Assembly (NCBI GenBank): GCA_963765495.1
Contig: CAVXWP010000008.1
Location: 864,001 to 928,000, forward strand
DNA: 64,000 bases
From: Blastocatellia bacterium
Lineage (GTDB): Bacteria; Acidobacteriota; Blastocatellia; UBA7656
Reading direction: 5' to 3'
This document shows, piece by piece, positions 1,115 through 63,258 of the stretch; position 1 is the first letter of the stretch; every line of letters starts with the position of its first letter. The notes beneath the pieces were generated by a model, which saw only the letters and a program-made list of their open reading frames with translations, was not told the DNA's origin and did no database searches. A program made the position numbers and the translations under genes.

Positions 1115-1209
1115 ATGATGCGCGATGCGTGATGCGTGACTTTTATGGAGATTGCCTGTTATAGACAAATTGCAAGTCTGATAAATCACGAATCACGAAT
1201 CACGAATCA
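1115..1209. repeat. Heptamer-armed hairpin element, GATGCGT/TCACGAA family (copy A)
   Basis: (GATGCGT)n left arm, 46-nt spacer (1140-1185), (TCACGAA)3 right arm. Confidence 0.85.
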
Positions 1210-1240
1210 GTCTCGCATCGCAGAATAAAAGGTATAGGCT

Positions 1241-2941
1241 ATGAAAAAAAGCTGCGCTTTGTCACTCATTCTCTTGATCGTATCGATTGCGCCCGTTGCG
1301 CCGCGCGCTGACGAGCGCGAGCCGGTTCGCGCACGGCACGGCATGGTGGCATCTACGAGCGAAATAGCCTCGCGCGTCGGGATTGACATCATGAAGCGCG
1401 GCGGCAATGCCGTTGACGCGGCCGTAGCCGTAGGGCTTGCGCTCGCCGTTGTCTGGCCTTCGGCGGGGAATTTAGGCGGCGGCGGGTTTATGATGATTCG
1501 CCGTGCAGACGGGACATCGGAAGTGATCGATTACCGCGAGCGAGCCCCTCTTGCCGCAAGCCGCGATATGTATCTCGATAAAGAGGGCAACGTCATCAAA
1601 GACGCATCTACGGTTGGATACAGGGCGGTGGGCGTGCCCGGGTCGGTTGCGGGCTTTGCGCTCGCGCTCGAGCGTCACGGCAAGCTCAAATGGGCCGACG
1701 TGGTAGAGCCTGCGCTCGAGCTTGCAGCGGAAGGATTCACGGTCAACTACCACACGGCACGCAGCCTGACCGGAAGCCAAAGGCTTTTATCGAAATTCCC
1801 CGAAAGCCGGAGGATTTTCCTTCGCGACGGCAAGCCTTATGAAGAGGGCGAAAGTTTCAGACAGCCTGATCTTGCGGCTACGCTAACTAGATTGAAAGAG
1901 AACGGCCCGCGCGAATTTTACGAAGGCAAGACCGCCGAGATGATCGTCAAAGACATGAAAGAAAACGGCGGTTTGATTACGGCAAAGGACCTGGCCGAAT
2001 ACAAGCCCACGGTGCGAAAACCGCTGAGTGGAAATTATCGAGGGTACGAGATCATCACCATGCCGCCGCCCTCATCGGGCGGGGCCGCGCTGATCGAGAT
2101 GCTGAACATGCTTGAGCATTACGACCTTAAAAAGATGGGCCACAACGCATCGGCTGAACTTCACGTACTGATAGAAGCGCAGCGACGGGCTTTTGCGGAT
2201 CGGGCAGAATTTATGGGCGATGCCGATTTCGTCAAGGTTCCGCTCGAAGGGCTGGTATCAAGGAAATATGCCGCCGATCTTGTAAAGACTATCAAGAAAG
2301 ACCGGGCGACTCCGAGCAGCGAAATCAAGGCGGGCAAGCCGACCGGCTATGAGTCACCGAATACGACTCACTTCACCGTGATCGACGGGGAAGGCAACGT
2401 GGTGTCGAATACCTACACGCTGAATAACAGTTACGGGTCGGGCGCGACCGCTCGCGGCACAGGCGTACTGCTCAACAATGAGATGGATGATTTTACATCC
2501 AAGCCGGGAGTGCCAAACGCCTACGGGCTGCTTCAGAGCGAGAACAACGCCATCCAGCCGAGCAAGCGCCCGCTTTCGGCGATGACCCCCACGATAGTTT
2601 TGAAAGACGGCAAAGTGGCTTTCGCCATAGGCAGTCCCGGCGGGCCTACGATCATCAACACGGTCCTACAGGTGATTATCAACGTTATTGATTTCGATAT
2701 GAACATACAGCAGGCGATTGATGCGCCGCGATTTCATCACCAGTGGATGCCGGACGAAATCCGTTGGGAGCCCTACGGATTGAACAACGACACGCGGACG
2801 GCGATGGAAAAGATGGGTCACGTCTTTTCTGAAAGACCCGGTTACATGGGCGACGCCGAAGGCATAATGATAGAACCTGAAACCGGAATGAGATTGGGAG
2901 CTTCCGACCCCAGGCTTGGCGGCGTTCCCGTAGGCTACTGA
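1241..2941 (+). CDS. ggt: Gamma-glutamyltransferase
   Basis: Signal peptide, GGNAVDAAVA, catalytic Thr in NTTHFTV, LNNEMDDF, KRPLSAMTP, GSPGG. Confidence 0.96.
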   Translation: MKKSCALSLILLIVSIAPVAPRADEREPVRARHGMVASTSEIASRVGIDIMKRGGNAVDAAVAVGLALAVVWPSAGNLGGGGFMMIRRADGTSEVIDYRERAPLAASRDMYLDKEGNVIKDASTVGYRAVGVPGSVAGFALALERHGKLKWADVVEPALELAAEGFTVNYHTARSLTGSQRLLSKFPESRRIFLRDGKPYEEGESFRQPDLAATLTRLKENGPREFYEGKTAEMIVKDMKENGGLITAKDLAEYKPTVRKPLSGNYRGYEIITMPPPSSGGAALIEMLNMLEHYDLKKMGHNASAELHVLIEAQRRAFADRAEFMGDADFVKVPLEGLVSRKYAADLVKTIKKDRATPSSEIKAGKPTGYESPNTTHFTVIDGEGNVVSNTYTLNNSYGSGATARGTGVLLNNEMDDFTSKPGVPNAYGLLQSENNAIQPSKRPLSAMTPTIVLKDGKVAFAIGSPGGPTIINTVLQVIINVIDFDMNIQQAIDAPRFHHQWMPDEIRWEPYGLNNDTRTAMEKMGHVFSERPGYMGDAEGIMIEPETGMRLGASDPRLGGVPVGY

Positions 2942-2947
2942 TTGATC

Positions 2948-4159
2948 ATGACTATAGACGAACAGATCGCATACTTAAAAAAGGGCACGGTTGATTGCAT
3001 CCCGGAAAACGAACTGCGCAGCAAGCTCGAACGCGCGGCAAAGACGGGGAAACCGTTAAGGGTCAAGGCAGGCTTCGACCCAACCGCGCCCGACCTGCAC
3101 TTAGGCCACACGGTGTTGATCCGCAAGATGCGCCACTTTCAGCAACTCGGCCATCGGGTGATCTTTCTGATAGGCGATTTCACCGGGATGATAGGCGATC
3201 CGTCGGGCCGCTCGGCCACGCGCCCGCCGCTTACCACCGAACAGATAATCGAAAATGCCGAGACCTACAAGGAGCAAATATTCAAGTTGCTCGACCCCGA
3301 GTTGACCGAAATTCGTTTCAACAATGAGTGGATGTCAAAATTCAAGGCGGCCGATTTTATAAGACTCACTGCGGCGGCTACGGTGGCGCAATTGCTCGAA
3401 CGCGATGATTTCAAGAAGCGGTTTGAGGCGTACACACCTATCAGCGTCCACGAGTTTCTCTACTCGTTTGTTCAAGGGTACGACTCGGTGGCGCTTGAGG
3501 CCGATGTCGAGCTTGGAGGCACGGATCAGAAATTCAACCTGTTGATGGCGCGACAGGTGCAGCGCGAATACGGCGTGAGCGAGCCTCAACTGATAATGAC
3601 TACGCCGTTGCTTGAAGGGCTCGACGGCGTGCAGAAGATGTCAAAAAGCCTCGGTAATTACATAGGCATCACCGAGCCTGCGCGTGATATATTCGGCAAG
3701 GTCATGTCCATAAGCGATGATTTGATGTGGCGTTATTACGAGTTGCTGACCGATATGACACCACGCGAGGTCGAGGAATTGAAAGAGGCAACCAGCCGGG
3801 GCGAAAAACATCCGAGAGATTTGAAAGCCGCGCTCGGTCGCCGCATAGTAGCGGATTTCCACTCCGAGGCCGAAGCTCAGGAAGCGAGCGACGAATTTGA
3901 TCGGATGTTTCGCGAGCATCAGGCTCCCACAGATATTCCTGTCTTAGAGAAATCCGTCGAGGCAGTCAGGCTTGTAAAACTTCTCGCTTCGGAAAACCTC
4001 GCTTCGTCTGTTTCAGAAGCCCAGAGATTCGTCGCACAAGGCAGCGTACGCATAGACGACGAGCGCATAAGCGACGTAAAGCACGAGGTAGGCGAAAGCG
4101 CAGGCGAGATATTGATTCAAGTCGGCAAGCGGAAGTATCTCCGCGTGGTTTTCAAATGA
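2948..4159 (+). CDS. tyrS: Tyrosine--tRNA ligase
   Basis: [13 protein letters not shown] (HIGH motif), [14 protein letters not shown]-terminal S4-like domain. Confidence 0.97.
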
Positions 4160-4211
4160 AGCAGGTTTTTTCCAGGGCCATTCAGTTTTCAAATTGTAGA
4201 TAAGGAAAAAG

Positions 4212-4302
4212 GAAATAGGCCGCGGATGACGCGGATGCGACGGATTTTCGCGGATCTGACATTTTATGAGTTAATCCGCGTAGATCCGCCGCATCCGCGT
4301 CA
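4212..4302. repeat. Palindromic element with ~9-bp CGCGGAT repeat arms (copy 1), right arm truncated and fused to a TCACGAA arm at 4310-4340
   Basis: GAAATAGGCCGCGGATGACGCGGAT...ATCCGCGTCA; homologous to 7025, 9863 and 17698. Confidence 0.85.
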
Positions 4303-4358
4303 ACGGCATGATAAATCACGAATCACGATTCGCGAATCACCTGTGATAAAATGCTTAT

Positions 4359-5936: not shown

Positions 5937-6003
5937 CAGACAGGATTTACAAGATTTTTGAAGTAAGAGCGCAAAATCCTGTTGATCCTGTAAATCCTGT
6001 CTA
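5937..6003. repeat. Hairpin with ACAGGATTT/AATCCTGT ~9-bp repeat arms between convergent genes
   Basis: AGACAGGATTTACAAGATT...AATCCTGTTGATCCTGTAAATCCTGTCT. Confidence 0.8.
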
Positions 6004-6958: not shown

Positions 6959-7252
6959 AGACAGGATTAACTAAATCGAAATGCACAAGCCTGGTACAAA
7001 CGAAACTCCAAAGTAGTGTAATTAGAAATAGGCCGCGGATGACGCGGATCGGGCGGATCTACGCGGATCTGACCCTGTATGACCCAATCCGCGAAAATCC
7101 GCCCGATCCGCGTCATCCGCGGCCTATTCCGATCTGCCTTTCATTCAAACTCATTTGTACCAATCTCTTGCGGAGTGATTTAGATTCGATAGGATCAGAC
7201 AAGATTCTTTTTAAATCCTGTCTAATCCATCCAAATCCTGTCAATCCTGTCT
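6959..7252. repeat. ACAGGAT/ATCCTGT-family hairpin interrupted by a MITE-like insertion
   Basis: Left arm is split (6959-6970 and 7184-7206); right arm AATCCTGT repeats at 7214-7252 reach the permease stop codon. Confidence 0.7.
6971..7183. mobile_element. MITE-like element (copy 1) with ~33-bp imperfect terminal inverted repeats and an internal CGCGGAT palindrome (7025-7130)
   Basis: Left CTAAATCgaaatGCAcaagccTGGTACAAAcGA versus reverse complement of right CTAAATCactccGCAagagatTGGTACAAAtGA; second copy at 9808-10023. Confidence 0.75.
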
Positions 7253-9692
7253 ACTCGTATCGGAGCGCGGTCATCGGGTCCACTTTCGCCGCGCGGCGCG
7301 CAGGAATGAGCGTCGCTATGAAGGCTACGAGTGAAAGCAGGAGAGGAGTAGCGAGGAAGGTTATCAAATCGGTTGCGCTTACACCATAGAGCAGGCTCGA
7401 CAGGAAGCGCGTCAGACCGAAAGCGGCAAGAAGGCCGATTGCCACTCCGATCAAGGCAAGCATCATGCCTTGCCTTACCACGAGTTTTAGCACATCCGAA
7501 GTTCGAGCGCCCAGCGCCATGCGAATTCCTATTTCATGAGTTCGCTGCGATACCGAATAAGTGATGACTCCGTATAGACCTACCGAAGCCAGCACAAGGG
7601 CGAGCATCCCCAGTATGCCTAGCAGTGTGGCTGCGATGCGTTGAGGGAAGACTGAGATGGCGAGATGATCGGTCATGGATTTTATCTCGTAGAGGGGCAG
7701 GTCGGGGTCCATCGCTCGCACTTCCTGGCGCACGGCGGGGAGCATCTCTTCGGGTGGCCCCGATGTGCGAATCTGAAGGACAACCTCCGAGCGATAGCTT
7801 TGCGCGATTGGCATATACATAAAAGGCTTCGGGTCTTCTCCGAGGAACTGGTACTTGCCGTCTCGGGCCACGCCAACGACTTCCAGTTTTGTATCGCCTA
7901 TTCTTATCTGCGAGCCAAGCGGGTCACGGTCTCCCCAGTACCGTCTGGCCATTGTCTGATTGATGACCGCCACCCTGTTCGAATCCTTATTATCTTGCGC
8001 GGTAAACTCTCGACCCTCGGTAAGCGGGATGCCCATCGTGGCAAAATAATTCAAGCCGACATTGTTGGTAAAGATGTTTATCTCTTCGCCGGGTCGGGGT
8101 TGGTATCCGTCTATTTGCGCGTGTGAAGAGCTTGACCCGCCAAAGCCGAGCGGGACGCGATGGGCCACTGTAGCCGATTCCACGCCGGGCATAGCCTTAA
8201 TTCTTTCTACCATCTGGTCGTGAAACAGCGTACCTCGCTCAGGCGTGTACCCGTTTGGGAAGAGGTCATAGCTAACAAGCAGCATGTTGTTTGGATTAAA
8301 ACCGGGGTCGAGAGTCTGGCCGTTTTTCAGGCTCTTTAGGAACAGCCCCGCGCAAATCAACAGCAGAAGTGAAAGGGCTACTTGAAAGACCACCAGCAGA
8401 TTGCGGAGCCGCGATCTTGCCTGCCCGCCCCCGCTTCGCCCGCCCGCGTCCTTGAGCGTGTTGATCAAATTCGGGTTGGATGTCTGAAGCGCCGGGGCGA
8501 GTCCGAAGATCAACCCTGTCAGGACTGAGACGACAAGTGTAAAGATAAGGATGCGACCGTCAAGGTCGGTCGCAAGCTTTACGGGGATATCGGTTGTAGG
8601 AGCAAAGGCCAGCAAGAGGCCCGCTCCCCAATAAGCTACAAGTAATCCGCCAAGCCCGCCTACAAGAGCGAGTAAGACACTTTCGGTCATCAACTGACGT
8701 ATAAGCCGCAACCGACTGGCTCCAAGCGCCAGCCGAATGGCGATTTCCTTTCTGCGGCCCACGGCTTTCGACAGCAATAAATTGGCCACGTTGGCGCAGG
8801 CAATCAGAAGTACCAGCCCGACTACGGCGGTCATCACGAGCAGAACGGGTTTGAGAAGGAACCCTGCTCCCCACGGAGAGTTCCACAATGGATATAGCGC
8901 GGCGGTCATTCCTTCGTTCGAGCGAGGGTATTCCTGAGCAAGCTGACCGGCCACCGTGTTTATGCTCGACTCTGCCTGTGAGATAGTCACGCCGGGCTTT
9001 AATCGAGCCAGCGACTGCAACCAGCGATTCCCTCTCTGTTCAAGCAATTTGTCGCCCGGAACCACCTGTTGCTGCATCATCATCGGAACCCAGATATCGA
9101 GACCGAGACCTACAACCGTTCCTCCGAAATTTTCAGGAGCGATGCCGACGATAGTGAAGGGGTGGCCGTTTATCGTCACTGTTCGGTTCAGAAGGCCGGG
9201 ATCGGAATTGAACCGGCGTTGCCACAATCCGTGGCTGATCACGGCCACGGCATGGCTGCCGGGATCGCGATCTTCTTCGGGCAAAAAGGTCCGACCGGGC
9301 GAGGCCGCGACTCCCAGCACGTCAAAGTAATTGCCCGACACAATCGCGCCATAAACGCGCTCGGCCCGTCCGCCGTCGCTCAGGCTCATGGCCTGCATGT
9401 CGAATGTGGTGACGCCTGAGAAAACTTCGTTATGGTCTCTGAAATCGACGAAGTCGGGGTAAGAACAACTGATGGGTGACCCGGAAGGCGACTTCGTAGC
9501 GAGTACGACCAGGCTGTCCGGGTCAGACACTCCCGGCAACGGGCGCAATAAAACGGCCTGTACCCAACTGAATATCGTAGTATTTGCCCCAATTCCAAGG
9601 GCAAGAGAAAGGACCGCGATGCCCGTCAGACCGGGATTTTTTAAGAGAGTGCGAAAGCCAAAACGGATGTCTTGAAGCAGGGTGTCAAACAT
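7251..9692 (-). CDS. ADOP-family duplicated orphan ABC permease (MacB-PCD/FtsX x2)
   Basis: QDIRFGFRTLLKNPG, LLIACANVANLLL, RTHEIGIRMALGA, ends DPMTALRYE; no ATPase gene nearby. Confidence 0.95.
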   Translation of the reverse strand: MFDTLLQDIRFGFRTLLKNPGLTGIAVLSLALGIGANTTIFSWVQAVLLRPLPGVSDPDSLVVLATKSPSGSPISCSYPDFVDFRDHNEVFSGVTTFDMQAMSLSDGGRAERVYGAIVSGNYFDVLGVAASPGRTFLPEEDRDPGSHAVAVISHGLWQRRFNSDPGLLNRTVTINGHPFTIVGIAPENFGGTVVGLGLDIWVPMMMQQQVVPGDKLLEQRGNRWLQSLARLKPGVTISQAESSINTVAGQLAQEYPRSNEGMTAALYPLWNSPWGAGFLLKPVLLVMTAVVGLVLLIACANVANLLLSKAVGRRKEIAIRLALGASRLRLIRQLMTESVLLALVGGLGGLLVAYWGAGLLLAFAPTTDIPVKLATDLDGRILIFTLVVSVLTGLIFGLAPALQTSNPNLINTLKDAGGRSGGGQARSRLRNLLVVFQVALSLLLLICAGLFLKSLKNGQTLDPGFNPNNMLLVSYDLFPNGYTPERGTLFHDQMVERIKAMPGVESATVAHRVPLGFGGSSSSHAQIDGYQPRPGEEINIFTNNVGLNYFATMGIPLTEGREFTAQDNKDSNRVAVINQTMARRYWGDRDPLGSQIRIGDTKLEVVGVARDGKYQFLGEDPKPFMYMPIAQSYRSEVVLQIRTSGPPEEMLPAVRQEVRAMDPDLPLYEIKSMTDHLAISVFPQRIAATLLGILGMLALVLASVGLYGVITYSVSQRTHEIGIRMALGARTSDVLKLVVRQGMMLALIGVAIGLLAAFGLTRFLSSLLYGVSATDLITFLATPLLLSLVAFIATLIPARRAAKVDPMTALRYE

Positions 9693-9807
9693 GCAGCCCC
9701 CAGATGTCTAAAAGATTGTAGGTTCACTGCTGCATTACTAATCGGGAGGGGATTTGGTTCGATTATTTTTTCCTGACCTCCAAACCTCAAGTGTCAAATA
9801 TCAAATC

Positions 9808-10023
9808 CAGAATCGAGATGCACAAGCCTGGTACAGACGAAACTCCAAAGTGGAGTGATGTAGAAATAGGCCACGGATGAACGCGGTTGCGACGGATTTT
9901 CACGGATCTGATTTTATATGAGCTAATCCGCGTAGATCCGCCGCATCCGCGTTCATCCGTGGTCCATTCCAATCTGACCTTCATTCAAATTCATTTGTAC
10001 CAAACTTTTGCGGAGTGTTTTAG
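9808..10023. mobile_element. MITE-like element (copy 2) with internal CGCGGAT palindrome (9863-9970)
   Basis: Colinear with 6971-7183 along its length (ATGCACAAGCCTGGTACA...TCATTTGTACCAA...GCGGAGTG.TTTAG). Confidence 0.75.
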
Positions 10024-10024
10024 A

Positions 10025-12487
10025 TCATTCGTATCTGAGAGCTTCCATCGGGTCTACCCTCGTAGCCCGTCGCGCAGGCACGAAACAGGCTGCAAGCGCC
10101 ACTCCCGCCAATATCATCGGCACCATCACAAACGTCATCGGGTCTGTCGCGCTCACCCCAAACAGCAGGCTGCTCATCACTCGCGTCAACGCATAGGAGG
10201 CGGCTAGCCCTGACAGTATGCCGGTAAGTATCAGCGCCATCCCCTGCCCCACTACCAGTCGCAGGATGTCTCCGGTCTTCGCTCCCAGTGCCATCCTTAT
10301 TCCGATCTCGTGCGTGCGTTGAGCCACCGTAAATGATACGAGTCCGTAGATCCCAACAATCGCCAGTATCAGCGCGACCGCGCCGAATGTGCCCATTAGA
10401 ATCATGTTGAATCGCGGCTGCGCGATAGCGCCTGCCAGTACCTGTTCCAGCGTTGTTATCTCTGAGATGGGCTGGGTTGCATCTATCGCGCTTATTTCAT
10501 CTCGAATCGCCGGGATGAGGGATGAAGGATCACCTGTAGTTCGTATCAGCGCCGTCATATCGGCCAGAGGAACCTGCCGCGCAGGCAAATAATATGCAGG
10601 CTCGATCTCGGCATCCAGACCCATAAACTTCGAGTCTCGCACGATGCCTACTATCTCGAATGAAGTAGGGACAGCCTTTCCCCAGAGGTTTGATGGAGTT
10701 GTGATCTGTACTCGCTTGCCAAGCGGGTCTTCGTCTGAAAAGTAGCGGCGAGCCAGGGCGTCGTTTATGATGATCACACCGGGGCGGTCGGTGTCATCCT
10801 GCTCGGTGAAGAGGCGGCCTCTTTCCAGTTCCATCCCAACCGTGCGGAAATAACCGGCGCTTACGGGGCGGAATCTGCCGGAGGGATGTTCACCCGGCTC
10901 AGGTTCGGGGCGCCCTTCGATTGAAAAACTGTCTATCCAGGTTGATTTCAACGGGTGGTCATAGGCCACGGCAGTGGATTCGACTCCCGGGATGCGGTTA
11001 ACTCGTTCGAGGAATTCCGCATAGAAATCTCGAATCTGATACCAGTCGGCATACTTTGATTGAGGCAGGGTGAGATCAAACAGCAGGACCCCCTGCGCAT
11101 TAAAGCCGGGGTTCACACGATTTAATTGCCAGAAACTCCTGATCAATAAACCGGCAGCCGTCACAAGAATGACCGCAAGGCTCACTTGAGCCACAACAAG
11201 AAGGCGACGAAACATCTGGCGGCTCGTCCCCGGTTGCAGGCTCCGCCCCCCCTCCTTGAGCGTCTCTACGAGATCGGGTCTGGAAGTTTGCAGGGCCGGC
11301 ATCAATCCGAATACGAGACTGGAAAGGAGGGAGATAAGCAGGGTGAAGCCAAGCACGTTCGAATCAACCCTGACCTGATCGAGCCGGGGGATTTCCTGTG
11401 GGATGATCTTCAGCAAGAGGTCAATGCCAAATAGCGCGAGCCAGATGCCCGCAGCGCCCCCGACAAGCGCAAGTAACAGACCTTCCACAAAAAACTGGCG
11501 CACCAGCCGCAGTCTGCTCGCGCCAAGCGCCGCGCGAATCGCCACCTCTTTCTGGCGTCCCGTCATCCGCGCAAGCAGGAGACTCGCTATGTTGGCGCAG
11601 GCAATCAGCAACACTAACCCGACCGTGCCAAGCAGGATTAGCAGCGCCGGTCTCACGCTTCCAACCACCTCATCGACAAGCGGGCTGACCAGTATGCCTT
11701 CATTCCTGTCTTCCGGGTATTGCTGTTCAAGGCGGGCGGCGATCACATCCATTTCCGATTGCGCATCTTTAATAGTAACGCCCTGTTTGAGGCGACCAAT
11801 GACCCCGAGTACGTGCGAATTGCGATTTGCGGCACGTTGTTCATTTAGCGTGAAAGGGATCAGATAATCCTGATGACTCGGCTGGAAAATTATCTGCGTG
11901 GATGTCATTGGCCACGTGGGATAAATACCTGCGGGCATCACTCCAACAACGGTGTAGCTGGTCCCATCCAACGTGATCGCCTTGCCGATAATATCGGGAT
12001 CGGCTCCGAACCTTCGCACCCACAAACCGTGCCCAAGAATGATCACGCTGTTTCTGCCCGGCTGCCCCTCTTCGGCTGAGAATGCGCGACCCAGAATCGG
12101 TGAGAGTCCCAGCGTAGCAAAATAGTTTGTGCTGACCCGCGCGCCCAAAAGCATTTCGGGTTCACCACTGCCGGTCAGGTTCATGCCGGACGCGCCGAAA
12201 GTTGCTATGTTTTCAAAAAGGGTGCCCTGCCTTTGCCAGTCAAGATAATTCGCGGGCGTTACGCGCGATCTGTCCCCTCCCCGGTCGATCCTGGTTTCCC
12301 AGAGCGCAACAACCCGGTCAGGCTCCTTATATCCCAGAGGCTTGAGCAAGACCGCGTTGACTACGCTGAAGATCGCCGTGTTTATCCCGATCCCCAATGC
12401 CAGCGTCATTATTACCACGGCGGTGAATCCGGGATTTTTGACCAGCAACCGCATTCCGTACTTCACGTCCTGCCACAGATTGTCCAT
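10025..12487 (-). CDS. ADOP-family duplicated orphan ABC permease
   Basis: MDNLWQDVKYGMRLLVKNPGF...DPMEALRYE; RBS AGGAG before ATG 12487. Confidence 0.95.
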   Translation of the reverse strand: MDNLWQDVKYGMRLLVKNPGFTAVVIMTLALGIGINTAIFSVVNAVLLKPLGYKEPDRVVALWETRIDRGGDRSRVTPANYLDWQRQGTLFENIATFGASGMNLTGSGEPEMLLGARVSTNYFATLGLSPILGRAFSAEEGQPGRNSVIILGHGLWVRRFGADPDIIGKAITLDGTSYTVVGVMPAGIYPTWPMTSTQIIFQPSHQDYLIPFTLNEQRAANRNSHVLGVIGRLKQGVTIKDAQSEMDVIAARLEQQYPEDRNEGILVSPLVDEVVGSVRPALLILLGTVGLVLLIACANIASLLLARMTGRQKEVAIRAALGASRLRLVRQFFVEGLLLALVGGAAGIWLALFGIDLLLKIIPQEIPRLDQVRVDSNVLGFTLLISLLSSLVFGLMPALQTSRPDLVETLKEGGRSLQPGTSRQMFRRLLVVAQVSLAVILVTAAGLLIRSFWQLNRVNPGFNAQGVLLFDLTLPQSKYADWYQIRDFYAEFLERVNRIPGVESTAVAYDHPLKSTWIDSFSIEGRPEPEPGEHPSGRFRPVSAGYFRTVGMELERGRLFTEQDDTDRPGVIIINDALARRYFSDEDPLGKRVQITTPSNLWGKAVPTSFEIVGIVRDSKFMGLDAEIEPAYYLPARQVPLADMTALIRTTGDPSSLIPAIRDEISAIDATQPISEITTLEQVLAGAIAQPRFNMILMGTFGAVALILAIVGIYGLVSFTVAQRTHEIGIRMALGAKTGDILRLVVGQGMALILTGILSGLAASYALTRVMSSLLFGVSATDPMTFVMVPMILAGVALAACFVPARRATRVDPMEALRYE

Positions 12488-12541
12488 TTGATCTCCTAAT
12501 CTCAGCGAGCGCATCTCAAATCTCGAATCTCAAATCCGAGA

Positions 12542-14959
12542 TCATTCGTATCTGAGAGCTTCCATCGGGTCTATCCTCGTAGCGCGTCGCGCAGGCACGA
12601 AACAGGCTGCAAGCGCCACTCCCGTCAATATCATCGGCACCATCACAAACGTCATCGGGTCTGTCGCGCTCACCCCAAACAGCAGGCTGCTCATCACTCG
12701 CGTCAACGCATAGGAGGCGGCTAGCCCTGACAGTATGCCGGTAAGTATCAGCGCCATCCCCTGCCCCACTACCAGTCGCAGGATGTCTCCGGTCTTCGCT
12801 CCCAGTGCCATCCTTACTCCGATCTCGTGTGTGCGCTGCCTGACCGAATAAGAAATCACGCCGTATATTCCTATGCTTGCCAGAATCAGAGCTATCGCGG
12901 AAAACATGGCAACGAGCAGCATGTTGAAACGCCGATCCGAGACCGATTCTGAAATCAGGTCGGTCATCGGGGCCACGTTGTAAATGGTCAACTCTTTCTC
13001 AAGCCCAAGCATTTGTTGGCGAACATTGCTTACCAGGGCCGAAGGGTCCCCGGTTGTGCGAATCGCTATGAAAGGGCTGACCGGCGGCCCCTGTTTGAAA
13101 TACATGTAGACTTCGGGGCGAGCCGCGACATCAAGCCCGAAATGATTGACATCGCCTACGACACCGACGATTGTCCACCACGGAGCATTCGGGTCGCCAA
13201 AAAACCTGATTCTTTTCCCGAGCGGGTCTTCACCCGGCCAGAACCTGCGCGCCGCCGATTCGGTGACAAGCCCGACCCTTGGCGAATCAGGCAAGTCTCG
13301 TTCTTCAAAGACGCGACCCTCCTTCAAGGGGATGCCCATCGCCTGAAAGTAATCCTTGCTTACACGGCGGAATTCGACTTCGGGACGCTCGCCTTCCGGG
13401 ACGGGCTGGCCCTCGATTTCGAGTGTGGTCGTGACCCCATCCATATTGCCTAATGGAAGCCGCGTGGTCCCGCCCACGGCCTGTACTCCAGGCAGAGAGG
13501 CTATGCGTTCAAACAATTGATCGTAGAAGGCCGCTCTCCGTGCCGATTGTCTGTACTGTTCCTGTTCCGGCAGCATGATTTGCATCGTCAGGAGATTTTC
13601 CTGATTGAACCCCGGATTTACCTGCAACAGGCGAGAGAAGCTGCGTATCATAAGACCCGCGCCTATCAACAACACGAGCGCAAGGGCTACTTCAGACACC
13701 ACGAGCAGGCTTCGCAGCCGGCCTCTGCCGCTCGCAAAACTCGTCCTCCCTCCTTCCTTGAGCGATTCGGTCAGGCTTGACTTTGAAAATTGCATCGCGG
13801 GGGCGAGGCCGAAAATGATTCCGGTCAATAGCGATATTATGAGCGTGAAGCCAAGCACCTGAGAGTCAATAACAATCTCATCGAGGCGAGGCAAATTCTT
13901 CGGGCTCAGCGCGCGAAGAAGGCTCACGCCCCATAGCGAAAGCAGCAAACCGGCCGCGCCGCCTACAAGAGAGAGGGTAACGCTTTCGGTCAAAAACTGC
14001 CGAATGAGTCGCAGGCGGGAAGCGCCAAGCGCGGTTCGGACCGCGATCTCTTTCTCCCGCGCTGCCGCTCGCGCTACCAGAAGGTTGGCCAGATTGGCGC
14101 AGGCAATCAGGAGCACGAAACCGACTACGCCAAACAGGACGAGCAGCGCGGGTCGAACCTTCCCTGTGATCTCTTTGTGAAGAGAGACGACATTGCCGCC
14201 AAGCCCCGTGTTTATCTCGGGGTATTGTTGCTCTAGCTGTCGAGTGATTGTAGCAACCTCCGTTCCGGCCTGATCAAAACTTGCGCCCGGAGCGAGATGT
14301 CCCACAACGGTCAGAAAGCGTACGGCTCGCCCTCGCGGAATAACCGGGTTAAGCTGCAACGGGAGCCAGAGGTCTACGTCTTCAAGGAAGTGAAACCCGC
14401 CGGGCATTACCCCGATGATAGTTGTCTTTCTGCTGTCGAGCGTTATCGTTTTGCCGCAAACATTCGGGTCTGCGCCAAAATGTCTAAGCCACAAACTATG
14501 GCTGATCAATGCGAGGTCTTCCTTGCCGGGTTTGTCTTCGGATTCTTGAAAAGCGCGGCCTAGAATCGGCCTTACGCCGAGCAGATCAAAGAAAGAGGCC
14601 GAGACCCAGAACCCTGTCACGTGTTCGGGCTCACCGTCGCCTGTGAGCCCGAAATTCCAGACCGGCGTAATCGCAGTCATCTCATCGAAACTCTGGCTCT
14701 GGTTACGGATATCTTCATAATTCGGGAAGGAAATGGGGTCGAGTTTCCCGCCTTCCTTGAAGTTTTCGTTCCGAACAATCGCAAGCCTCGACGGGTCTTT
14801 GAACGGGAGAGGCTTGAGCAGCACGCCATTTACTACGCTGAAGATCGCGGAGTTCGCGCCTATGCCAAGAGCAAGAGTCAGCACAGCGACAGAGGTGAAG
14901 CCGGGGTTCTTAACCATCATTCGGAACGCGTATCGGATGTCCTGCCAGAAATTTTGCAT
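12542..14959 (-). CDS. ADOP-family duplicated orphan ABC permease
   Basis: MQNFWQDIRYAFRMMVKNPGF...DPMEALRYE; RBS GGAGG before ATG 14959. Confidence 0.95.
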   Translation of the reverse strand: MQNFWQDIRYAFRMMVKNPGFTSVAVLTLALGIGANSAIFSVVNGVLLKPLPFKDPSRLAIVRNENFKEGGKLDPISFPNYEDIRNQSQSFDEMTAITPVWNFGLTGDGEPEHVTGFWVSASFFDLLGVRPILGRAFQESEDKPGKEDLALISHSLWLRHFGADPNVCGKTITLDSRKTTIIGVMPGGFHFLEDVDLWLPLQLNPVIPRGRAVRFLTVVGHLAPGASFDQAGTEVATITRQLEQQYPEINTGLGGNVVSLHKEITGKVRPALLVLFGVVGFVLLIACANLANLLVARAAAREKEIAVRTALGASRLRLIRQFLTESVTLSLVGGAAGLLLSLWGVSLLRALSPKNLPRLDEIVIDSQVLGFTLIISLLTGIIFGLAPAMQFSKSSLTESLKEGGRTSFASGRGRLRSLLVVSEVALALVLLIGAGLMIRSFSRLLQVNPGFNQENLLTMQIMLPEQEQYRQSARRAAFYDQLFERIASLPGVQAVGGTTRLPLGNMDGVTTTLEIEGQPVPEGERPEVEFRRVSKDYFQAMGIPLKEGRVFEERDLPDSPRVGLVTESAARRFWPGEDPLGKRIRFFGDPNAPWWTIVGVVGDVNHFGLDVAARPEVYMYFKQGPPVSPFIAIRTTGDPSALVSNVRQQMLGLEKELTIYNVAPMTDLISESVSDRRFNMLLVAMFSAIALILASIGIYGVISYSVRQRTHEIGVRMALGAKTGDILRLVVGQGMALILTGILSGLAASYALTRVMSSLLFGVSATDPMTFVMVPMILTGVALAACFVPARRATRIDPMEALRYE

Positions 14960-14997
14960 ATTTCCTCCCGCCTCTATCTCAAATCTCATATCCGAGT

Positions 14998-17430
14998 TTA
15001 TTCATATCTGAGAGCAACCATCGGGTCCACTTTCGTAGCGCGGCGGGCAGGAACATAACAGGCTACAAGGGCCACGACGATAAGCAATAAAGAGACCGCA
15101 ATAAAGGTGACAGGATCGGTTGCGCTCACGCCGTAAAGCAGTACCGACAACACCCGCATCAAGGCAAGCGCCCCGGCAATTCCGCAAACGATTCCGGCCC
15201 CGGCAAAGCTCATGCCCTTGCCCAGTACGTTTCTTAGTATCGCGCCCTCGCCTGCGCCAAGCGCCATGCGGATGCCTATTTCGTGGGTCCGCTCAGTGAC
15301 CGAGTAAGAGATAACACCGTATATTCCTACGAGGGCGAGCACCAGTCCCACAGCGGCAAAAATGACCAGAAGCAGCGTGTTGAATCGCTGTTGCGCGATT
15401 GAATTTGCGATCAACTCTTCGATTGGCGAAATTCTGTAGACCGGCTGATCGGGGTCTACGGCTGCGACTTCCCCGCGAATTGCGGAGGCCAGGCTCATCG
15501 GGTCGCCCGAAGCCCTTACAACAAAGTTTCCCCACCCCCAGGTTTGTTGACGATGTGGGACATACATCTCCGGCAACAGGTCGCGCGAAAGTCCAGAATG
15601 GCGCACATCGCCGACTATGCCTACGATCTCCCAGATAGCAGGCTCGTTATCGTCTACATTTACGCCCACGTTAGAGATTCGCTGGCCGATAGGGTTTTCA
15701 TCCGGCCAGTAGCGACGGGCAAGCGTTTCATTGAGGATGACAGCGCCGATTCCGCCTTTTCTGTCCGCATCGGTGAACTCGCGGCCCTTCAATAAAGGAA
15801 TACGCATTGTTTTGAAGTAACCCGGTGTCACACCGCGAAGACCGGCTTCGGGTTCCTGTCCGGGCAATGAAGGCCGTCCCTCAATCGTAAAACCCGTGTA
15901 AACATTATTTCCGCTAAAAGGTGCGGGCGTCACAAGGTCGGCAGATTTTACGCCGGGGAGAGCCCTTATACGATCGAGCACCTGTTGAAAGAACTCTATC
16001 CGCTGCTGGTCTTCCGGGAACTTCGTGCGCGAGGTCGAGATTCGCGCCATCAACACGTTCTCAGGATCGAAGCCGGGATTGACCTGTCTGAGCGTGAAGA
16101 AACTCTTTATCAATAATCCCGCGCCGATCAAGAGCATGAAGGCCAGAGCCACCTCAGAAACTACAAGCAAGCCGCGAAGGCGATGGCGTCCGGGACCGGC
16201 GGTGCTGCTGCGGCTTCCATCCTTGAGCGATTCATTCATATCGGGGTGCGATGCCTTAAGCGCAGGCATCAGACCAAAGATGATGCCCGTCAAAATCGAG
16301 GCCGTAAACGTAAAGGCGAGGACGCGAATATCAATCCCGACCGCGTTTATTTGCGGCAGATTTGCCGGCGCGAAAGAGATCAGGAAATCTTTCCCCCACG
16401 CGCCGATAAGCAATCCGAGCGCGCCGCCCGCAAGTCCAAGTATCAGGCTTTCCGTGAGCAGTTGCCGCACTATGCGCCATCGGCTCGCGCCCAGTGCCGT
16501 GCGGATGGCGATCTCTTTTTGACGTGACGAGGCTCTTGCAAGCAGCAGGTTCGCCACGTTCGAACAGGCGATCAGCAACACGAAGGCCACAGCGCCAAAC
16601 AAGACCCACAGCGCGGGACGGACATCAGCGACAAGATCATCGTGTAATCCGACAAGCTCAATGCCGATGTCGGTATTTGTCTGGGGGTAGAGTTTTTCGA
16701 GGCTTGCGGCAAGATTGCGCATATCGGCCTGCGCCTGCTCGATTGTAACGCCGGGTTTCAAACGGGCTACTACCCGATTTGTCTTGGCTCCCCTCTCTTG
16801 CAGGTTGCCCCCTTCGAAGGCAATGGTTGTGAACACCTTCGCGTCGTCAACAGAGACCGGAAATTTAAATTCTGCGGGCAGGACGCCAATGATCGTGTAG
16901 GGCTCATCGCTAAGCATGAGGGTACGGCCAGGTACGGTTGTGTCCCCGGCAAACAATCGCTGCCATAGACCATAGCTCAAGACAACCAGCCGTTCTGAGC
17001 CGGGTTTGTCTTCGCCCGGAAGAAAGGTGCGGCCGAGTATCGGGCTTACCCGGAGAAGATCGAAAAAATTTGCCGATACGCTCCCGCTGTCGATCCGTTC
17101 GGCCTCTTTGAATCCTGTGAGAGTAAAACCGGTTGACCTGAAGGCCGCGACATCGTCAAAGACCTGGTTCTGCGCTCTCCAGTCTTCGTAATTCGGGAAA
17201 GAAGTCATGAAGCCGCCCTTGCCGATCTTTGTATCGAACTCAGAAGCGAGCACGAGACGATCGGCTTCAGCAAGCGGGAGAGGGCGCAGCAGGATCGCGT
17301 TTATCACGCTGAAGATTGCCGTGTTGGCCCCAATGCCTAAAGCCAGAGCGAGTACGGCGATCCCGGTGAATCCCGGTTTTTTCAGCAGAGTGCGAACAGC
17401 GTAGCGAATGTCTTGAATCAAACTCTCCAT
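14998..17430 (-). CDS. ADOP-family duplicated orphan ABC permease
   Basis: MESLIQDIRYAVRTLLKKPGF...DPMVALRYE. Confidence 0.95.
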   Translation of the reverse strand: MESLIQDIRYAVRTLLKKPGFTGIAVLALALGIGANTAIFSVINAILLRPLPLAEADRLVLASEFDTKIGKGGFMTSFPNYEDWRAQNQVFDDVAAFRSTGFTLTGFKEAERIDSGSVSANFFDLLRVSPILGRTFLPGEDKPGSERLVVLSYGLWQRLFAGDTTVPGRTLMLSDEPYTIIGVLPAEFKFPVSVDDAKVFTTIAFEGGNLQERGAKTNRVVARLKPGVTIEQAQADMRNLAASLEKLYPQTNTDIGIELVGLHDDLVADVRPALWVLFGAVAFVLLIACSNVANLLLARASSRQKEIAIRTALGASRWRIVRQLLTESLILGLAGGALGLLIGAWGKDFLISFAPANLPQINAVGIDIRVLAFTFTASILTGIIFGLMPALKASHPDMNESLKDGSRSSTAGPGRHRLRGLLVVSEVALAFMLLIGAGLLIKSFFTLRQVNPGFDPENVLMARISTSRTKFPEDQQRIEFFQQVLDRIRALPGVKSADLVTPAPFSGNNVYTGFTIEGRPSLPGQEPEAGLRGVTPGYFKTMRIPLLKGREFTDADRKGGIGAVILNETLARRYWPDENPIGQRISNVGVNVDDNEPAIWEIVGIVGDVRHSGLSRDLLPEMYVPHRQQTWGWGNFVVRASGDPMSLASAIRGEVAAVDPDQPVYRISPIEELIANSIAQQRFNTLLLVIFAAVGLVLALVGIYGVISYSVTERTHEIGIRMALGAGEGAILRNVLGKGMSFAGAGIVCGIAGALALMRVLSVLLYGVSATDPVTFIAVSLLLIVVALVACYVPARRATKVDPMVALRYE

Positions 17431-17532
17431 AGCCTTTTTCCCCTTAAATCTGTCAATGATGACTTCAATGATTGATTGACAGTGTTTCGATAATTGATCG
17501 CGAACGAAGGCGCTTTTCCCTGTGAAGGCTAA

Positions 17533-17548
17533 ACCAAGCGGCGTGCCA
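17533..17548 (-). promoter_or_regulatory. Possible sigma54 (-24/-12) promoter for the ADOP array
   Basis: Minus strand TGGCACG-CCGC-TTGGT: perfect -24, -12 is GG instead of GC. Confidence 0.4.
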
Positions 17549-17697
17549 TAGGTGTTGACTACTCTTAAGTGAATCAATAGCTCAAGTTGGCGGGGTTTAA
17601 TAAATCACGGGCGAGCATAACGGTGTTCGTTTCCTGGAAAGCCATTCCCAAAAACGGGCACGAATCAGTTTTCCCAATATCTTCAAAGGGGCGAATA

Positions 17698-17804
17698 GAA
17701 ATAGGCCGGGACGGTCGCGGATGCGGCGGATCGACGCGGATCAGACCATATTTGAGCTAATCCGCGCTAATCCGTCACATCCGTCGAATCCGCGACCTAA
17801 TCTC
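17698..17804. repeat. CGCGGAT-armed palindromic element (copy 4)
   Basis: GAAATAGGCC...CGCGGAT...TGAGCTAATCCGCG...ATCCGCGACCTA; just downstream of the M28 peptidase stop. Confidence 0.85.
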
Positions 17805-24160: not shown

Positions 24161-24260
24161 GTGATACGTGATACGCTCGATGATTCGTGATTCGTGACCT
24201 TCAGGCAGATAATTGTAAACCGCAGGCTACCTGCCATCACGCATCACGCGTCACGCATCA
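24161..24260. repeat. Heptamer-armed hairpin element, GATGCGT/TCACG family (copy B)
   Basis: GTGATAC/GTGATTC arm, 39-nt spacer beginning CCTTCAGGCA, TCACGCA arm containing the mqnC stop codon. Confidence 0.8.
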
Positions 24261-28381: not shown

Positions 28382-28482
28382 AAATTTCTTTATCGCACCG
28401 ATTACCTTAATCTGCAATCCGAAGCCGGTCAAGAACGACCGCTCGCCGCGCTCAAGTAGTATCTGTTCAGAAACGGGATAAT

Positions 28483-28552
28483 AGCCACAGAGACACAAAG
28501 ACACAGAGATTTCTTTTATATTCTTCTCTCTGTGGTTCTGTGGCTCTGTGGC
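28483..28552. repeat. Hairpin with 9-bp CACAGAG/CTCTGTG repeat arms (copy 1)
   Basis: AGCCACAGAGACACAAAGACACAGAG...CTCTGTGGTTCTGTGGCTCTGTGGCT. Confidence 0.85.
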
Positions 28553-28582
28553 TAATCTGAACTTCTCACCCCAGGAGAATTC

Positions 28583-29128: not shown

Positions 29129-29196
<68 letters not shown>

Positions 29197-29199
29197 CCT

Positions 29200-35679: not shown

Positions 35680-35802
35680 TGATACGTGATGCGTGATACG
35701 TGATGCGTGATGCGTGATGCGTGATTTATGAAGTTTGTTGTGAGCTTATCGACAGGCAATTGCCTGAAAGTCACGCTTCACGTATCACGCTTAACGTTTC
35801 AC
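35680..35802. repeat. Heptamer-armed hairpin element, GATGCGT/TCACG family (copy C)
   Basis: About six GAT(G/A)CGT units, 46-nt spacer (35725-35770), TCACG arm containing the upstream gene's stop codon. Confidence 0.9.
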
Positions 35803-37898: not shown

Positions 37899-38009
37899 AA
37901 TTTCAATGGACAAAAGGTTTTGCATAGATGAATGACGGATAGCCCCGCGATACCGCGTTATTTTCGGGGCTCGATCACTGGCCCCCGGCCCCCGGCCCCT
38001 GGCCCCTGA
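37866..38009. repeat. G-rich heptamer-armed hairpin (copy 2), with both arms inside coding sequences
   Basis: GGGGGCCAGGGGCCGGGGGTCGGGGGCCGG ... CTGGCCCCCGGCCCCCGGCCCCTGGCCCCTGA. Confidence 0.9.
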
Positions 38010-46893: not shown

Positions 46894-46993
46894 GCGTGAT
46901 ACGTGATGCGTGAGATCGGACATTTCCTCATTAAAGGAAGACCGTCTTTAATATCACGCATCACGCTTCACTTATCACTCCATCACGCATCAC
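46894..46993. repeat. Heptamer-armed hairpin element, GATGCGT/TCACG family (copy D)
   Basis: GCGTGATACGTGATGCGTGA ... ATCACGCATCACGCTTCACTTATCACTCCATCACGCATCAC. Confidence 0.85.
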
Positions 46994-47002
46994 TTGTGTG
47001 GA

Positions 47003-53235: not shown

Positions 53236-53312
53236 GGGATTTGAGATTTGAGATTTGTGAGATCAAAGATTGATCGCAAGATTACGAAATAAATTTCCAA
53301 TCTGCTCAATCT
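53236..53312. repeat. ATTTGAG heptamer array with weak complementary arm
   Basis: GGGATTTGAGATTTGAGATTTGTGAGAT. Confidence 0.55.
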
Positions 53313-56982: not shown

Positions 56983-57020
56983 TCTGCCCGCTCTCTAGCG
57001 TGAGGGCGGGCAGATTTTTT
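56983..57020 (+). terminator. Intrinsic terminator
   Basis: TCTGCCCGCTCTC...GAGGGCGGGCAGA followed by TTTTTT. Confidence 0.85.
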
Positions 57021-57047
57021 GTATCTATCGAGAGCAGTGAGGATCTT

Positions 57048-57118
57048 GCCACAGAGGCACCGCAGACACGGAGATTATTTACGATCTTTTCTCTGTGTCT
57101 GCGGTGCCTCTGTGGCTA
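57048..57118. repeat. Hairpin with 9-bp CACAGAG/CTCTGTG repeat arms (copy 2)
   Basis: GCCACAGAGGCACCGCAGACACGGAG...CTCTGTGTCTGCGGTGCCTCTGTGGC. Confidence 0.85.
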
Positions 57119-58214: not shown

Positions 58215-58265
58215 AAATCTCAGGTCTGAAATTCCAAATTCTAAATCTCAAGTCTCGAGTCTCAG
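58215..58265. repeat. Degenerate TCTCAAA/ATTTGAG heptamer array
   Basis: ATCTCAG GTCTGAA ATTCCAA ATTCTAA ATCTCAA GTCTCGA GTCTCAG, period 7. Confidence 0.65.
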
Positions 58266-61572: not shown

Positions 61573-61590
61573 GGCAAAGGATGCGGGATT

Positions 61591-61682
61591 AGTGATGCGT
61601 GAAGAGTGATGCGTGACTATCAGGTAAACCGCCTGTTAAAAAAATAGTGCTAGACAGGCAAATCACGAATCACGAAACACTC
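61591..61682. repeat. Heptamer-armed hairpin element, GATGCGT/TCACGAA family (copy E)
   Basis: GTGATGC arm, 46-nt spacer (61617-61662), TCACGAA arm; lies between convergent genes. Confidence 0.85.
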
Positions 61683-62580: not shown

Positions 62581-62597
62581 AACAGACCTTCATCGGG

Positions 62598-63083
62598 TCA
62601 ATCCCCTTCGTCGAAATGTTTCTTCAGCTTATCGTAAGTGGTTTGCAGGTCTTCGGGCAGGACGCGGGTCTCGCCTATGATGGAGACGAAGTTGGCATCG
62701 CCCGTCCAGCGCGGGACTACGTGGAGATGAAGATGATCTGCCACACCGGCCCCCGCCGACTGACCGAGATTCATGCCTATGTTGAACCCGTCGGGGTTGT
62801 ATTCAGCCTCAAGCGCGGTCTGAGCGCGTTTGGTCAGCTCGATCATTTCTGTAGTGATTGCTTCGCTCAAGGAGGGGAAAGATGCAGTATGTTCGTAGGG
62901 CACGATCATCAAATGGCCGCTCGTGTAAGGAAAGAGGTTGAGGATAATGAAATTGAGTTTTGCGCGATGGACTATAAGGTAGTGACGATCTTCGCCCTGT
63001 TGAGCGCGACAGAAAACGCAGCCAGGTTCGCGTCCGGCCGAAGCGATATATTTGTAGCGCCAGGGGCTCCAGATATGTTCCAT
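62598..63083 (-). CDS. HIT-family hydrolase (Ap4A phosphorylase-like)
   Basis: IWSPWR, CVFC, HLHLHVVPRW. Confidence 0.93.
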   Translation of the reverse strand: MEHIWSPWRYKYIASAGREPGCVFCRAQQGEDRHYLIVHRAKLNFIILNLFPYTSGHLMIVPYEHTASFPSLSEAITTEMIELTKRAQTALEAEYNPDGFNIGMNLGQSAGAGVADHLHLHVVPRWTGDANFVSIIGETRVLPEDLQTTYDKLKKHFDEGD

Positions 63084-63107
63084 CTCTTCTTACGATAAAC
63101 AGTCGCC

Positions 63108-63155
63108 CAAAATGCCTAAGAGTGATGAGCTTGTCTGCTCATCACTCTTAGGCAT
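63108..63155 (-). terminator. Long perfect hairpin downstream of rpsA, probable terminator
   Basis: 19-bp perfect stem ATGCCTAAGAGTGATGAGC / GCTCATCACTCTTAGGCAT, 6-nt loop, short T-run on the minus strand. Confidence 0.7.
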
Positions 63156-63258
63156 CATTTTGAAACTATAGACCTACTCAAATCACTAGAGGAGCATGAT
63201 TTAGGAAGAAAGAATTAGATGCAAATCAGCAAGTCATTCATCCTTCATCCTTCAAAAG

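Follow-up and report, generated by a model that had tools for sequence, protein, structure and literature searches.

Tandem-repeat-armed hairpins in a Blastocatellia genome and their association with four-helix-bundle and GxxExxY genes

We analysed a stretch of 64,000 nt from a Blastocatellia bacterium, an acidobacterium from soil, referred to below as the window (C8:864001-928000 in a genome of 17 contigs, 7.30 Mb and ~54% G+C), whose intergenic spacers contain hairpins with arms made of short tandem repeats. On balance we regard it as probable that these hairpins belong to a single class of palindromic DNA cassette that is selfish and in most copies cargo-less, of the same kind as the cyanobacterial short tandemly repeated repetitive (STRR) sequences, the heptamer-built stems of ORF-bearing intervening sequences (IVS) in 23S rRNA and the paired heptamers of Xanthomonas. 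The cassette consists of a G-rich unit in tandem copies, an interior, and the complementary C-rich unit in tandem copies. The arms, not the interior, define the family, and the interior is free cargo: nothing, a family-specific core of 40-115 nt, another repeat element or a small gene. In the loci examined, strict 7-nt arms pair with a four-helix-bundle (S23p/Avd-like) gene, and arms of 8-10-nt units with a CRCRGAK-like core pair with a GxxExxY gene (PD-(D/E)XK fold).

Abundance, families and polarity of the arms

Tandem arrays were called with Tandem Repeats Finder (TRF), which returned 51 rows for the window, mostly paired and of period 7 to 10, and 4540 arrays genome-wide (1641 of period 7, 239 of period 6 and 301 of period 8). 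The original prediction, made from the window alone, had described intergenic elements built as a tandem array, a spacer and an array of the reverse-complement unit. TRF and reading of the sequence found this architecture at every site it had named, and the coordinates hold. When neighbouring TRF arrays less than 300 bp apart were compared across the genome, 483 pairs had reverse-complement units versus 11 with direct units. For a sensitive test we took arrays of period 7-10 with at least 2.5 copies and sought an inverted partner within 260 bp: 1154 of the 1861 arrays had one versus 15 in the control (the reversed, uncomplemented sequence), and direct partners numbered 22. The genome-wide scan proposed with the original prediction thus yielded an excess over controls, and the observation is real and far beyond chance. 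The genome contains ~580 hairpins and 707 solitary arrays in total. As RNA, the hairpins have a mean fold energy of -51.6 kcal/mol (335 hairpins) compared to -24.8 for mononucleotide shuffles.

The 483 pairs reduce to 46 canonical units, several of which are variants of each other. The largest families are GATGCGT (116), GATTCGT (58), AGGGATG (52), TAGGCAG (39), GAGTTTT (34), GGGGCCG (33) and GATACGT (23). The spacers are non-random: those of 25 nt or more number 405, and 199 of them form similarity clusters that track the arm type. The AGGGATG core measures ~70 nt and is palindromic by itself; TAGGCAG has cores of 72 or 115 nt, one of which is common with GAGTTTT arms; the GGGGCCG spacers are mutually unrelated. 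Hairpins are frequently nested within each other or around other repeats. Three AGGGATG hairpins (C10:136476, C12:48114 and C15:52386) have identical flanks to the left and right, hence a larger repeat carries the hairpin there at a fixed internal position. The original prediction had counted at least six unrelated families, but some of the families are related: GATGCGT, GATTCGT, GATACGT and GATCCGT belong to one superfamily (GATNCGT) with a core of ~43 nt. Its idea of a shared design is borne out: the families form one class with a common architecture, polarity, four-unit arm mode and placement.

Arms most often consist of 4 units (396 of 966 arms), and between the two arms of a hairpin the number of units shows a weak correlation (rho 0.27). 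The 5' arm has more G than C in 461 of the 483 pairs, fewer in 10 and equal numbers in 12, and every family of more than seven members shows one polarity only. In the sensitive test the partner of G-rich arrays lay to the right in 541 cases versus 15 and that of C-rich arrays to the left in 553 versus 26, that is, on the expected side 1094 times versus 41. A hairpin composed of an array, a loop and the complementary array is identical on both strands, so the G-rich arm comes first on whichever strand is read. This polarity has the consequence that most arms read inward close all three reading frames: a stop codon does so in 661/966 arms versus 14/966 under the opposite polarity.

We compared the genome with 30 related genomes, all of other genera (31 genomes counting this one). 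Closer relatives were not found among them, and metagenome contigs showed at most 77% amino-acid identity over near-full-length matches, with fragments up to 90%. (GATGCGT)3 is present in 7 of the 31 genomes and (AGGGATG)3 likewise in 7 of 31, the latter being most abundant in a genome of another family within the class; the reversed control gave 0 for both. A locus sample of 1.18 Mb contained 30 inverted pairs in 757 kb of Acidobacteriota-labelled contigs compared to 1 in 420 kb from other phyla. Cyanobacterial STRR heptamers and small dispersed repeats were reportedly described by Mazel et al. in 1990, Vioque in 1997 and Elhai et al. in 2008. Dispersed tandem heptamers with few, genome-specific sequences, the defining feature of STRRs, occur in this genome as well, and the likeness to STRRs extends to several families, partly complementary arms that lengthen the helix and other small repeats nested inside. 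The STRRs belong to a different phylum, however, and the rules on polarity, stop codons and gene cassettes seen here are not known to be part of the STRR accounts.

Genes enclosed by the hairpins

Small open reading frames (ORFs) were found between inverted arrays 300-500 bp apart. Whole-genome searches returned exactly four genes of PF05635 (23S_rRNA_IVP; TIGR02436, 'four helix bundle protein' in NCBIfam; weak match to Avd of diversity-generating retroelements) and exactly one gene of PF13366 (PDDEXK_3; TIGR04256, 'GxxExxY protein'). All of them (4/4 and 1/1) lie inside hairpins outside the window, and the five gene-bearing hairpins have five different arms (GGGGCCA, GAGTTTT, AGGGATG, GATTTTG and CGCGGAT 9-mers). 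The statement in the original prediction that the window encodes no candidate enzyme is correct for the window, while these five copies are found elsewhere in the genome. The longer copies enclosing a four-helix-bundle or GxxExxY ORF that it had suggested looking for thus exist for 5/5 such genes, and also in relatives and in other phyla.

Of the 30 related genomes, 23 contain PF05635 and 22 contain PF13366. With a threshold of inverted arms of at least 17 nt, period 7 and a self-match of at least 0.7, arms were detected at 26 of the 44 PF05635 loci of the relatives, and in 24 of those 26 the G-rich arm comes first. At the PF13366 loci 14 of 26 showed inverted arms of period 8-11 (CACAGAG, CGCAGAG, CACGGAG or CGCGGAT-like) and none showed period 7. 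A few of the relatives' loci are cut by contig ends. None of 300 random 330-bp stand-ins used as a control had inverted arms. Given the period 8-11 arms at PF13366 loci, the ~9-nt families of the window (CGCGGAT, CACAGAG) represent the GxxExxY-linked class and the heptamers the class linked to four-helix-bundle genes, a split that may not be general.

Four-helix-bundle proteins that are mutual best hits have the same arm unit across genera: three proteins with GATTTTG arms are 64-75% identical, three with TAGTCAG arms 62-68% and two with GGGGTCR arms 71%. In all three protein pairs tested (3/3) the similarity ends at the element ends and the flanks are unrelated. As gene and arms together occupy non-orthologous sites and are patchy among genera, these comparisons indicate that the cassettes probably are, or were, mobile as DNA. 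A reverse transcriptase as partner of the Avd-like genes was considered and rejected: none of the eight RVT_1 matches in the genome stands beside a hairpin gene. These matches (C2:555493-558553, C8:78-1508, C9:79-1506 and C9:34942-35232 among their locations) include several at contig starts; judged by the size of the ORFs and their place at contig ends, they resemble reverse transcriptases of multi-copy group II introns, at which the assembly seems to break.

The same arrangement is seen beyond the phylum. Homologues of the four-helix-bundle protein were found on 29 plasmid records, mostly from Nostocales, and in seven of eight plasmid loci the gene is flanked by inverted tandem 7-8-mers with the G-rich arm first (Nostoc edaphicum, Anabaena sp. 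90, Calothrix, N. punctiforme, Leptolyngbya, Gemmatirosa and Riemerella); for the cyanobacterial plasmid genes the count is 5/6. The hairpin-wrapped gene stands between two ribonucleotide reductase subunit genes on the N. edaphicum plasmid and between cas6 and cas4 on the Anabaena sp. 90 plasmid, which means that cassettes lodge tightly between functional genes. Of five GxxExxY plasmid loci, one is enclosed by tandem arms, namely inverted 9-mers of the CACAGAGGA type in Bacteroides finegoldii. Two more have the same motif next to the gene or around it: Treponema has a single inverted CACGGATTCG and Gemmatirosa a CGCGGAT hairpin beside the gene. The remaining two have direct repeats in one case and nothing in the other.

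A close published counterpart is the 23S rRNA IVS, which sits at the tip of an rRNA helix and is removed by RNase III. In Coxiella burnetii it comprises an S23p ORF and a 28-bp stem with 2-3 strain-variable GACAGAT heptamers, in which RNase III cuts; ORF-bearing IVSs also occur in Leptospira and others and are regarded as selfish, with their way of moving unexplained (available text of Warrier et al. 2016, PMC4990558). The elements described here resemble the IVS, as far as that text portrays it, in the inverted-repeat stem, the tandem heptamers in the stem and the PF05635 gene in the loop of a long stem (4/4). They differ in lying outside rRNA, between ordinary genes, which in the window are protein and tRNA genes, in numbering ~580 per genome with many arm families, in that nearly all copies are gene-less, and in having GxxExxY as a second gene type in a second arm class. 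A connection to Xanthomonas comes from the protein within the GGGGCCA arms, which matches PDB 2GSC (E 4.7e-25), the solved four-helix-bundle protein XCC0516. A GGGAATC array overlaps the start codon of XCC0516 according to the supplementary table of Rehm et al. (2015, PMC4692102), and the parts of that paper available to us draw no link to four-helix-bundle proteins despite this entry.

Placement at gene ends and elements in the window

Genes were called with a crude, purpose-made ORF caller (5253 genes, 84.6% coding) on which all placement figures depend. Hairpins are enriched at gene 3' ends, as the original prediction had expected: their density per kb is 0.73 for convergent spacers, 0.39 for tandem ones and 0.13 for divergent ones. 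Divergent spacers hold 33 elements, and 74 of 483 hairpins lie inside called ORFs. Measured from stop codon to arm at 549 stop-side flanks, the median gap is 1 nt, with 142 gaps of 0-4 nt and 32 of -1, compared to a median of 23 nt for start-side flanks. In 119 flanks the ORF ends 2-10 nt within the arm. At the junctions the stop codon of the gene is often located where the unit has its own TGA or TAG and is often in phase with the first unit, and the outer units inside ORF ends are degenerate. For the sugar-transferase gene next to the hairpin 32757-32883, comparison with orthologues showed that the conserved C-terminus is kept and that the array begins within the stop codon. For one gene the orthologous stop was compared in 47 relatives, and in most of them an array is absent. 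Convergent spacers with a hairpin have a median length of 107 nt, of which 6 nt are left after removal of the hairpin, and those without a hairpin 99 nt; the hairpin replaces the whole spacer between convergent genes. We found no relation between arm perfection and the gap to the stop (Spearman -0.02) and rejected on this ground a model in which stop adjacency arises by erosion with age. Where a solitary array lies within 20 nt of a stop, the sense strand is the G-rich one in 139 cases versus 26, whereas beside starts the numbers are 34 versus 35.

A similar placement is known from Xanthomonas campestris and X. axonopodis, whose paired GGGAATC heptamers form 70-75 convergent plus/minus-strand pairs, most often with 4 units; the coding strand carries the G-rich units, the arrays lie 0-50 bp from the stop or overlap it, and they are rare between divergent genes (available text of Rehm et al. 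2015, PMC4692102). Convergent plus/minus pairs, the 4-unit mode and the G-rich coding strand at the stop all recur here. The account of Xanthomonas, in the portion available, concerns one G-tract family read as quadruplex-forming, whereas here there are many families, most of them without G-tracts.

The partner search returned 13 paired hairpins and 6 solitary arrays for the window. The elements are listed below, with the strand where one applies.

1116-1209: hairpin, GATGCGT/GATTCGT arms at 1116-1139 and 1184-1209 with a 44-nt core; begins 5 nt past the stop at 1110
4172-4303: dispersed repeat of ~130 bp around the hairpin 4212-4303, which has four units of CGCGGAT plus 2-3 nt per arm; copies of 83-95% identity on other contigs
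4314-4340: solitary array (AATCACG) x3.9, without inverted partner in the partner search
5937-6002: hairpin of ACAGGAT-type ~9-nt units; occupies the convergent junction 5930/6015
6959-7251: nested composite of ACAGGAT outer arms, a middle repeat frame and an inner CGCGGAT hairpin at 7034-7122 (TRF and sequence reading)
9800-10025: second copy of the middle frame with an inner CGCGGAT-type hairpin at 9863-9965, between two permease paralogues
12513-12536, minus strand: solitary array, (TTGAGAT)n in gene sense; stop of the minus-strand gene at 12542
17698-17800: CGCGGAT-type hairpin (CGCGGAT plus 2-3 nt; TRF and sequence reading)
24161-24260: hairpin with GATACGT/GATTCGT arms, of which the 3' one overlaps a minus-strand gene's stop at 24244
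28481-28553: hairpin of 8-nt units CACAGAGA (CACAGAG group; TRF and partner search)
29201-29283: hairpin, GATTTTA arms; fills a tRNA-Ser/tRNA-Ser spacer to within 4 and 2 nt
29390-29420: small hairpin ATCTCAGATTT / AAATCTGAGAG, between tRNA-Ser and the signal recognition particle (SRP) RNA
32757-32883: hairpin, GGGGYCR arms; the entire convergent spacer, with the 3' arm overlapping the sugar-transferase stop codon by 1 nt
35680-35802: hairpin, 5' arm of 6.6 GATGCGT/GATACGT units, degenerate 3' arm, family core
37865-38008: hairpin, GGGGCCR arms; both convergent ORFs extend into the arms
46894-46995: hairpin, GATACGT/GATGCGT arms (TRF and partner search)
53238-53257: solitary array (GATTTGA) x2.9 in a divergent spacer
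57048-57115: hairpin of CACAGAG-type units, missed by TRF and read from the sequence; terminator-like stem and T-run at 56990-57027 upstream
58215-58264, minus strand: solitary degenerate array, G-rich in gene sense; stop of the minus-strand gene at 58276
61580-61680: hairpin, GATGCGT/GATTCGT arms; fills the convergent junction 61572/61690
63237-63254, minus strand: solitary array, (GGATGAA)n in gene sense; stop of the minus-strand gene at 63259

The original prediction had placed elements at all or nearly all convergent junctions, which overstates the case: by the crude gene calls a hairpin occupies 5 of the 8 junctions in the window, and a half copy lies at 27005/27027. At Rfam gathering score no hairpin in the window has a match, the only matches being three tRNAs and the SRP RNA. 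Within the RNA-gene cluster at 29107-29596, where the order is tRNA-Ser(CGA), hairpin, tRNA-Ser(GGA), small hairpin and SRP RNA (RF00169, 29500-29596), the repeat hairpins occupy spacers too, beyond the ends of protein genes. The gene content of the window is indicative of Acidobacteriota, with CarboxypepD_reg and outer membrane protein (OMP) barrel proteins and four tandem MacB/FtsX permeases, and the most similar public contigs carry the label Blastocatellia. The permeases lie on the minus strand at 7251-17577 and are MacB_PCD/FtsX paralogues of 813-859 aa, two identified by domain scan and two by their like ORF size. Their spacers are unequal: one of 332 nt contains a nested repeat, one of 27 nt contains a solitary array, and one is 8 nt long. 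The repeat frame of ~200 nt around the CGCGGAT hairpins is common to 6975-7200 and 9800-10025, and one of the copies lies within an ACAGGAT hairpin. Stems rich in G+C followed by T-runs, terminator-like in appearance, are found at 63110-63160 and at 56990-57027, directly upstream of the CACAGAG hairpin. From the latter site the genome also uses ordinary terminator-like sites, and most arms at the window sites read have no T-run after them.

Competing explanations and significance

One alternative draws on the placement and holds that the hairpins are host-selected 3'-end RNA elements, which end or protect transcripts as bidirectional terminators, exonuclease blocks or RNase III sites, the families being interchangeable and the small genes lodgers in the loop. 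The density gradient from convergent to divergent spacers, the 1-nt stop gap, the substitution of an entire convergent spacer at unchanged length, the sense-strand G-richness of solitary arrays beside stops but not starts and the hairpin in the tRNA-tRNA spacer would all fit, as would the RNase III cut in the Coxiella heptamer stem (PMC4990558, available text). We nevertheless consider it unlikely. The original prediction had suggested a shared RNA 3'-end function, but a strand-specific one is unsupported: sense and antisense folds are equally stable (-51.6 versus -51.1 kcal/mol, n=335, the sense strand being more stable in 174/335, p=0.25) and the GATNCGT core has no preferred orientation relative to transcription (53 with versus 41 against). 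Canonical terminators of a stem and T-run coexist with the hairpins, one of them immediately upstream of a hairpin; elements occur in divergent spacers and, by the crude calls, within genes; and most relatives do without an array at the orthologous stop mentioned above. A second alternative requires no transposition: slippage and intrastrand template switching would let slipped-register hairpins grow in place over neutral DNA up to a constrained boundary. This would account for spacers that are filled, but for a few nt, up to the stop codons or the ends of tRNAs and not lengthened, for stop codons in phase with the first unit and degenerate outer units in ORF ends, for the weak correlation of the arm unit numbers, for the lack of target-site duplications and for the variation in heptamer number among Coxiella strains (PMC4990558, available text). 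We judge it rather improbable, as dozens to hundreds of unrelated loci have an identical unit and non-repeat core, gene plus arms occupy non-orthologous sites in different genera, the unit families have a patchy distribution among genera that extends into another family of the class, and local growth does not predict a uniform polarity.

The remaining alternatives are still less probable. G-quadruplex regulatory repeats, as proposed for the heptamers of Xanthomonas and Nostoc, are very improbable here. Some families have tracts of G3-G5 at 7-nt spacing, and the placement and 4-unit mode agree with Rehm et al. (2015, PMC4692102, available text). Only the AGGGATG and GGGGCCG-type families have such G-tracts, however, so that at least four of them per array are not a general property; the commonest families (GATGCGT, GATTCGT, TAGGCAG, GAGTTTT and GATTTTA) follow the same rules without any, and the complementary partner of each G-rich arm would compete with quadruplex folding. 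Hardly credible, in our view, are elements moved by a REP-associated tyrosine transposase (RAYT, a Y1 transposase). Repetitive extragenic palindromes (REP), bacterial interspersed mosaic elements (BIME) and REP doublets (REPIN) are short extragenic palindromes in hundreds of copies, enriched behind genes and without target-site duplication (available text of Bertels and Rainey 2011, PMC3116915). The hairpins are alike in all these respects, and the genome has two Y1_Tnp genes. A REP, however, is a single palindrome of 20-40 nt with a GTAG or CGTC head, unlike the tandem arrays here. The RAYT-like gene (C17:144080-144565) has its own GTAG-headed REPs on both sides, the second Y1 gene, which is IS200-like, has end hairpins of its own, and neither is flanked by a heptamer array. 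The RAYT link considered in the original prediction was rejected for want of a cognate RAYT with heptamer arms among these two genes. The region C17:143950-144700, outside the window, with its RAYT-like gene and GTAG-headed palindromes, is a separate classical REP system. MITEs (miniature inverted-repeat transposable elements) derived from DDE transposons are similar in being small, non-coding and dispersed with terminal inverted repeats and family structure. Unlike these, the hairpins showed no target-site duplication at the 30 AGGGATG copies inspected and no transposase-bearing parent: what lies between inverted pairs 300-6000 bp apart is ordinary genes or the five small ORFs, and a transposase is absent. 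A DDE-derived MITE and long transposase-bearing copies were both rejected on these grounds. A model of MITEs formed by deletion was likewise rejected, the gene-bearing interiors being unlike all 405 cargo-less spacers.

If the hairpins are selfish cassettes, as we regard as probable, an element-encoded protein or a host factor would act on the repeat arms in trans, so that cargo-less copies with the same arms could spread. The unit number would drift via slippage, and copies would survive only where they are harmless, mostly directly behind a stop codon, where a C-poor arm would put a stop into all three reading frames. The long stems, once transcribed, would probably serve as RNase III substrates or terminator-like 3' ends. 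Several points weigh against this reading. Movement itself was not directly observed, with no close strain among the 30 related genomes or the metagenome contigs. None of the five gene-bearing interiors, all of them single-copy, is similar to any of the 405 cargo-less spacers at E<=0.01, so the cargo-less copies are not simple deletion derivatives. No gene-bearing copy of the largest family, GATNCGT (218 TRF pairs), occurs in this genome or among the 44 loci of the relatives; 18 of those 44 PF05635 loci fail the arm threshold; and one relative (G015) has AGGGATG arrays and no PF05635 match. Tolerance alone does not explain why convergent spacers are no longer with a hairpin than without (107 versus 99 nt) or why the median stop gap is 1 nt whatever the arm perfection, and the crude gene calls behind these placement figures are a further caveat. 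Frame closure is not the whole reason for the polarity either, because the stop-free families GGGGCCG and CACAGAGA keep it too.

We also put forward, tentatively, a wider possibility: STRRs, the G-rich heptamers of Xanthomonas, the acidobacterial hairpins and the ORF-bearing rRNA IVS might be one pan-bacterial class of mobile hairpin cassettes. The arms would be cognate multivalent binding or cleavage sites of the cassette's own protein, with a pentameric Avd-like bundle reading 7-nt units and a GxxExxY PD-(D/E)XK nuclease reading CRCRGAK units of 8-10 nt. These proteins might drive copying into hairpin tips and gene ends in a way unlike known transposases, and the G-rich-first polarity might be the mark of that mechanism. 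Paired heptamers in Xanthomonas and IVS heptamers in Coxiella are already published, according to the available text of the two papers. The literature searched on both protein families together with repeats yielded only the Coxiella IVS paper and incidental mentions, and a general link between short-period hairpins and PF05635/PF13366 genes was not found in it.

Much of the intergenic sequence in this genome consists of short-period repeats, and the loci sampled indicate the same for many Blastocatellia. For annotation this matters in that the hairpins provide stop codons, cause false gene extensions, break assemblies and conceal structured RNAs. The strict polarity and the 1-nt spacing to the stop are quantitative rules that go beyond current models of repeat spread. 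Cyanobacterial repeats of a similar kind have lacked an explanation since about 1990, and those in Xanthomonas and in rRNA intervening sequences are likewise puzzling. The tie to two small, widespread gene families of unassigned function offers a testable handle on both puzzles, in the form of whether the protein binds or cleaves the arms around its gene.

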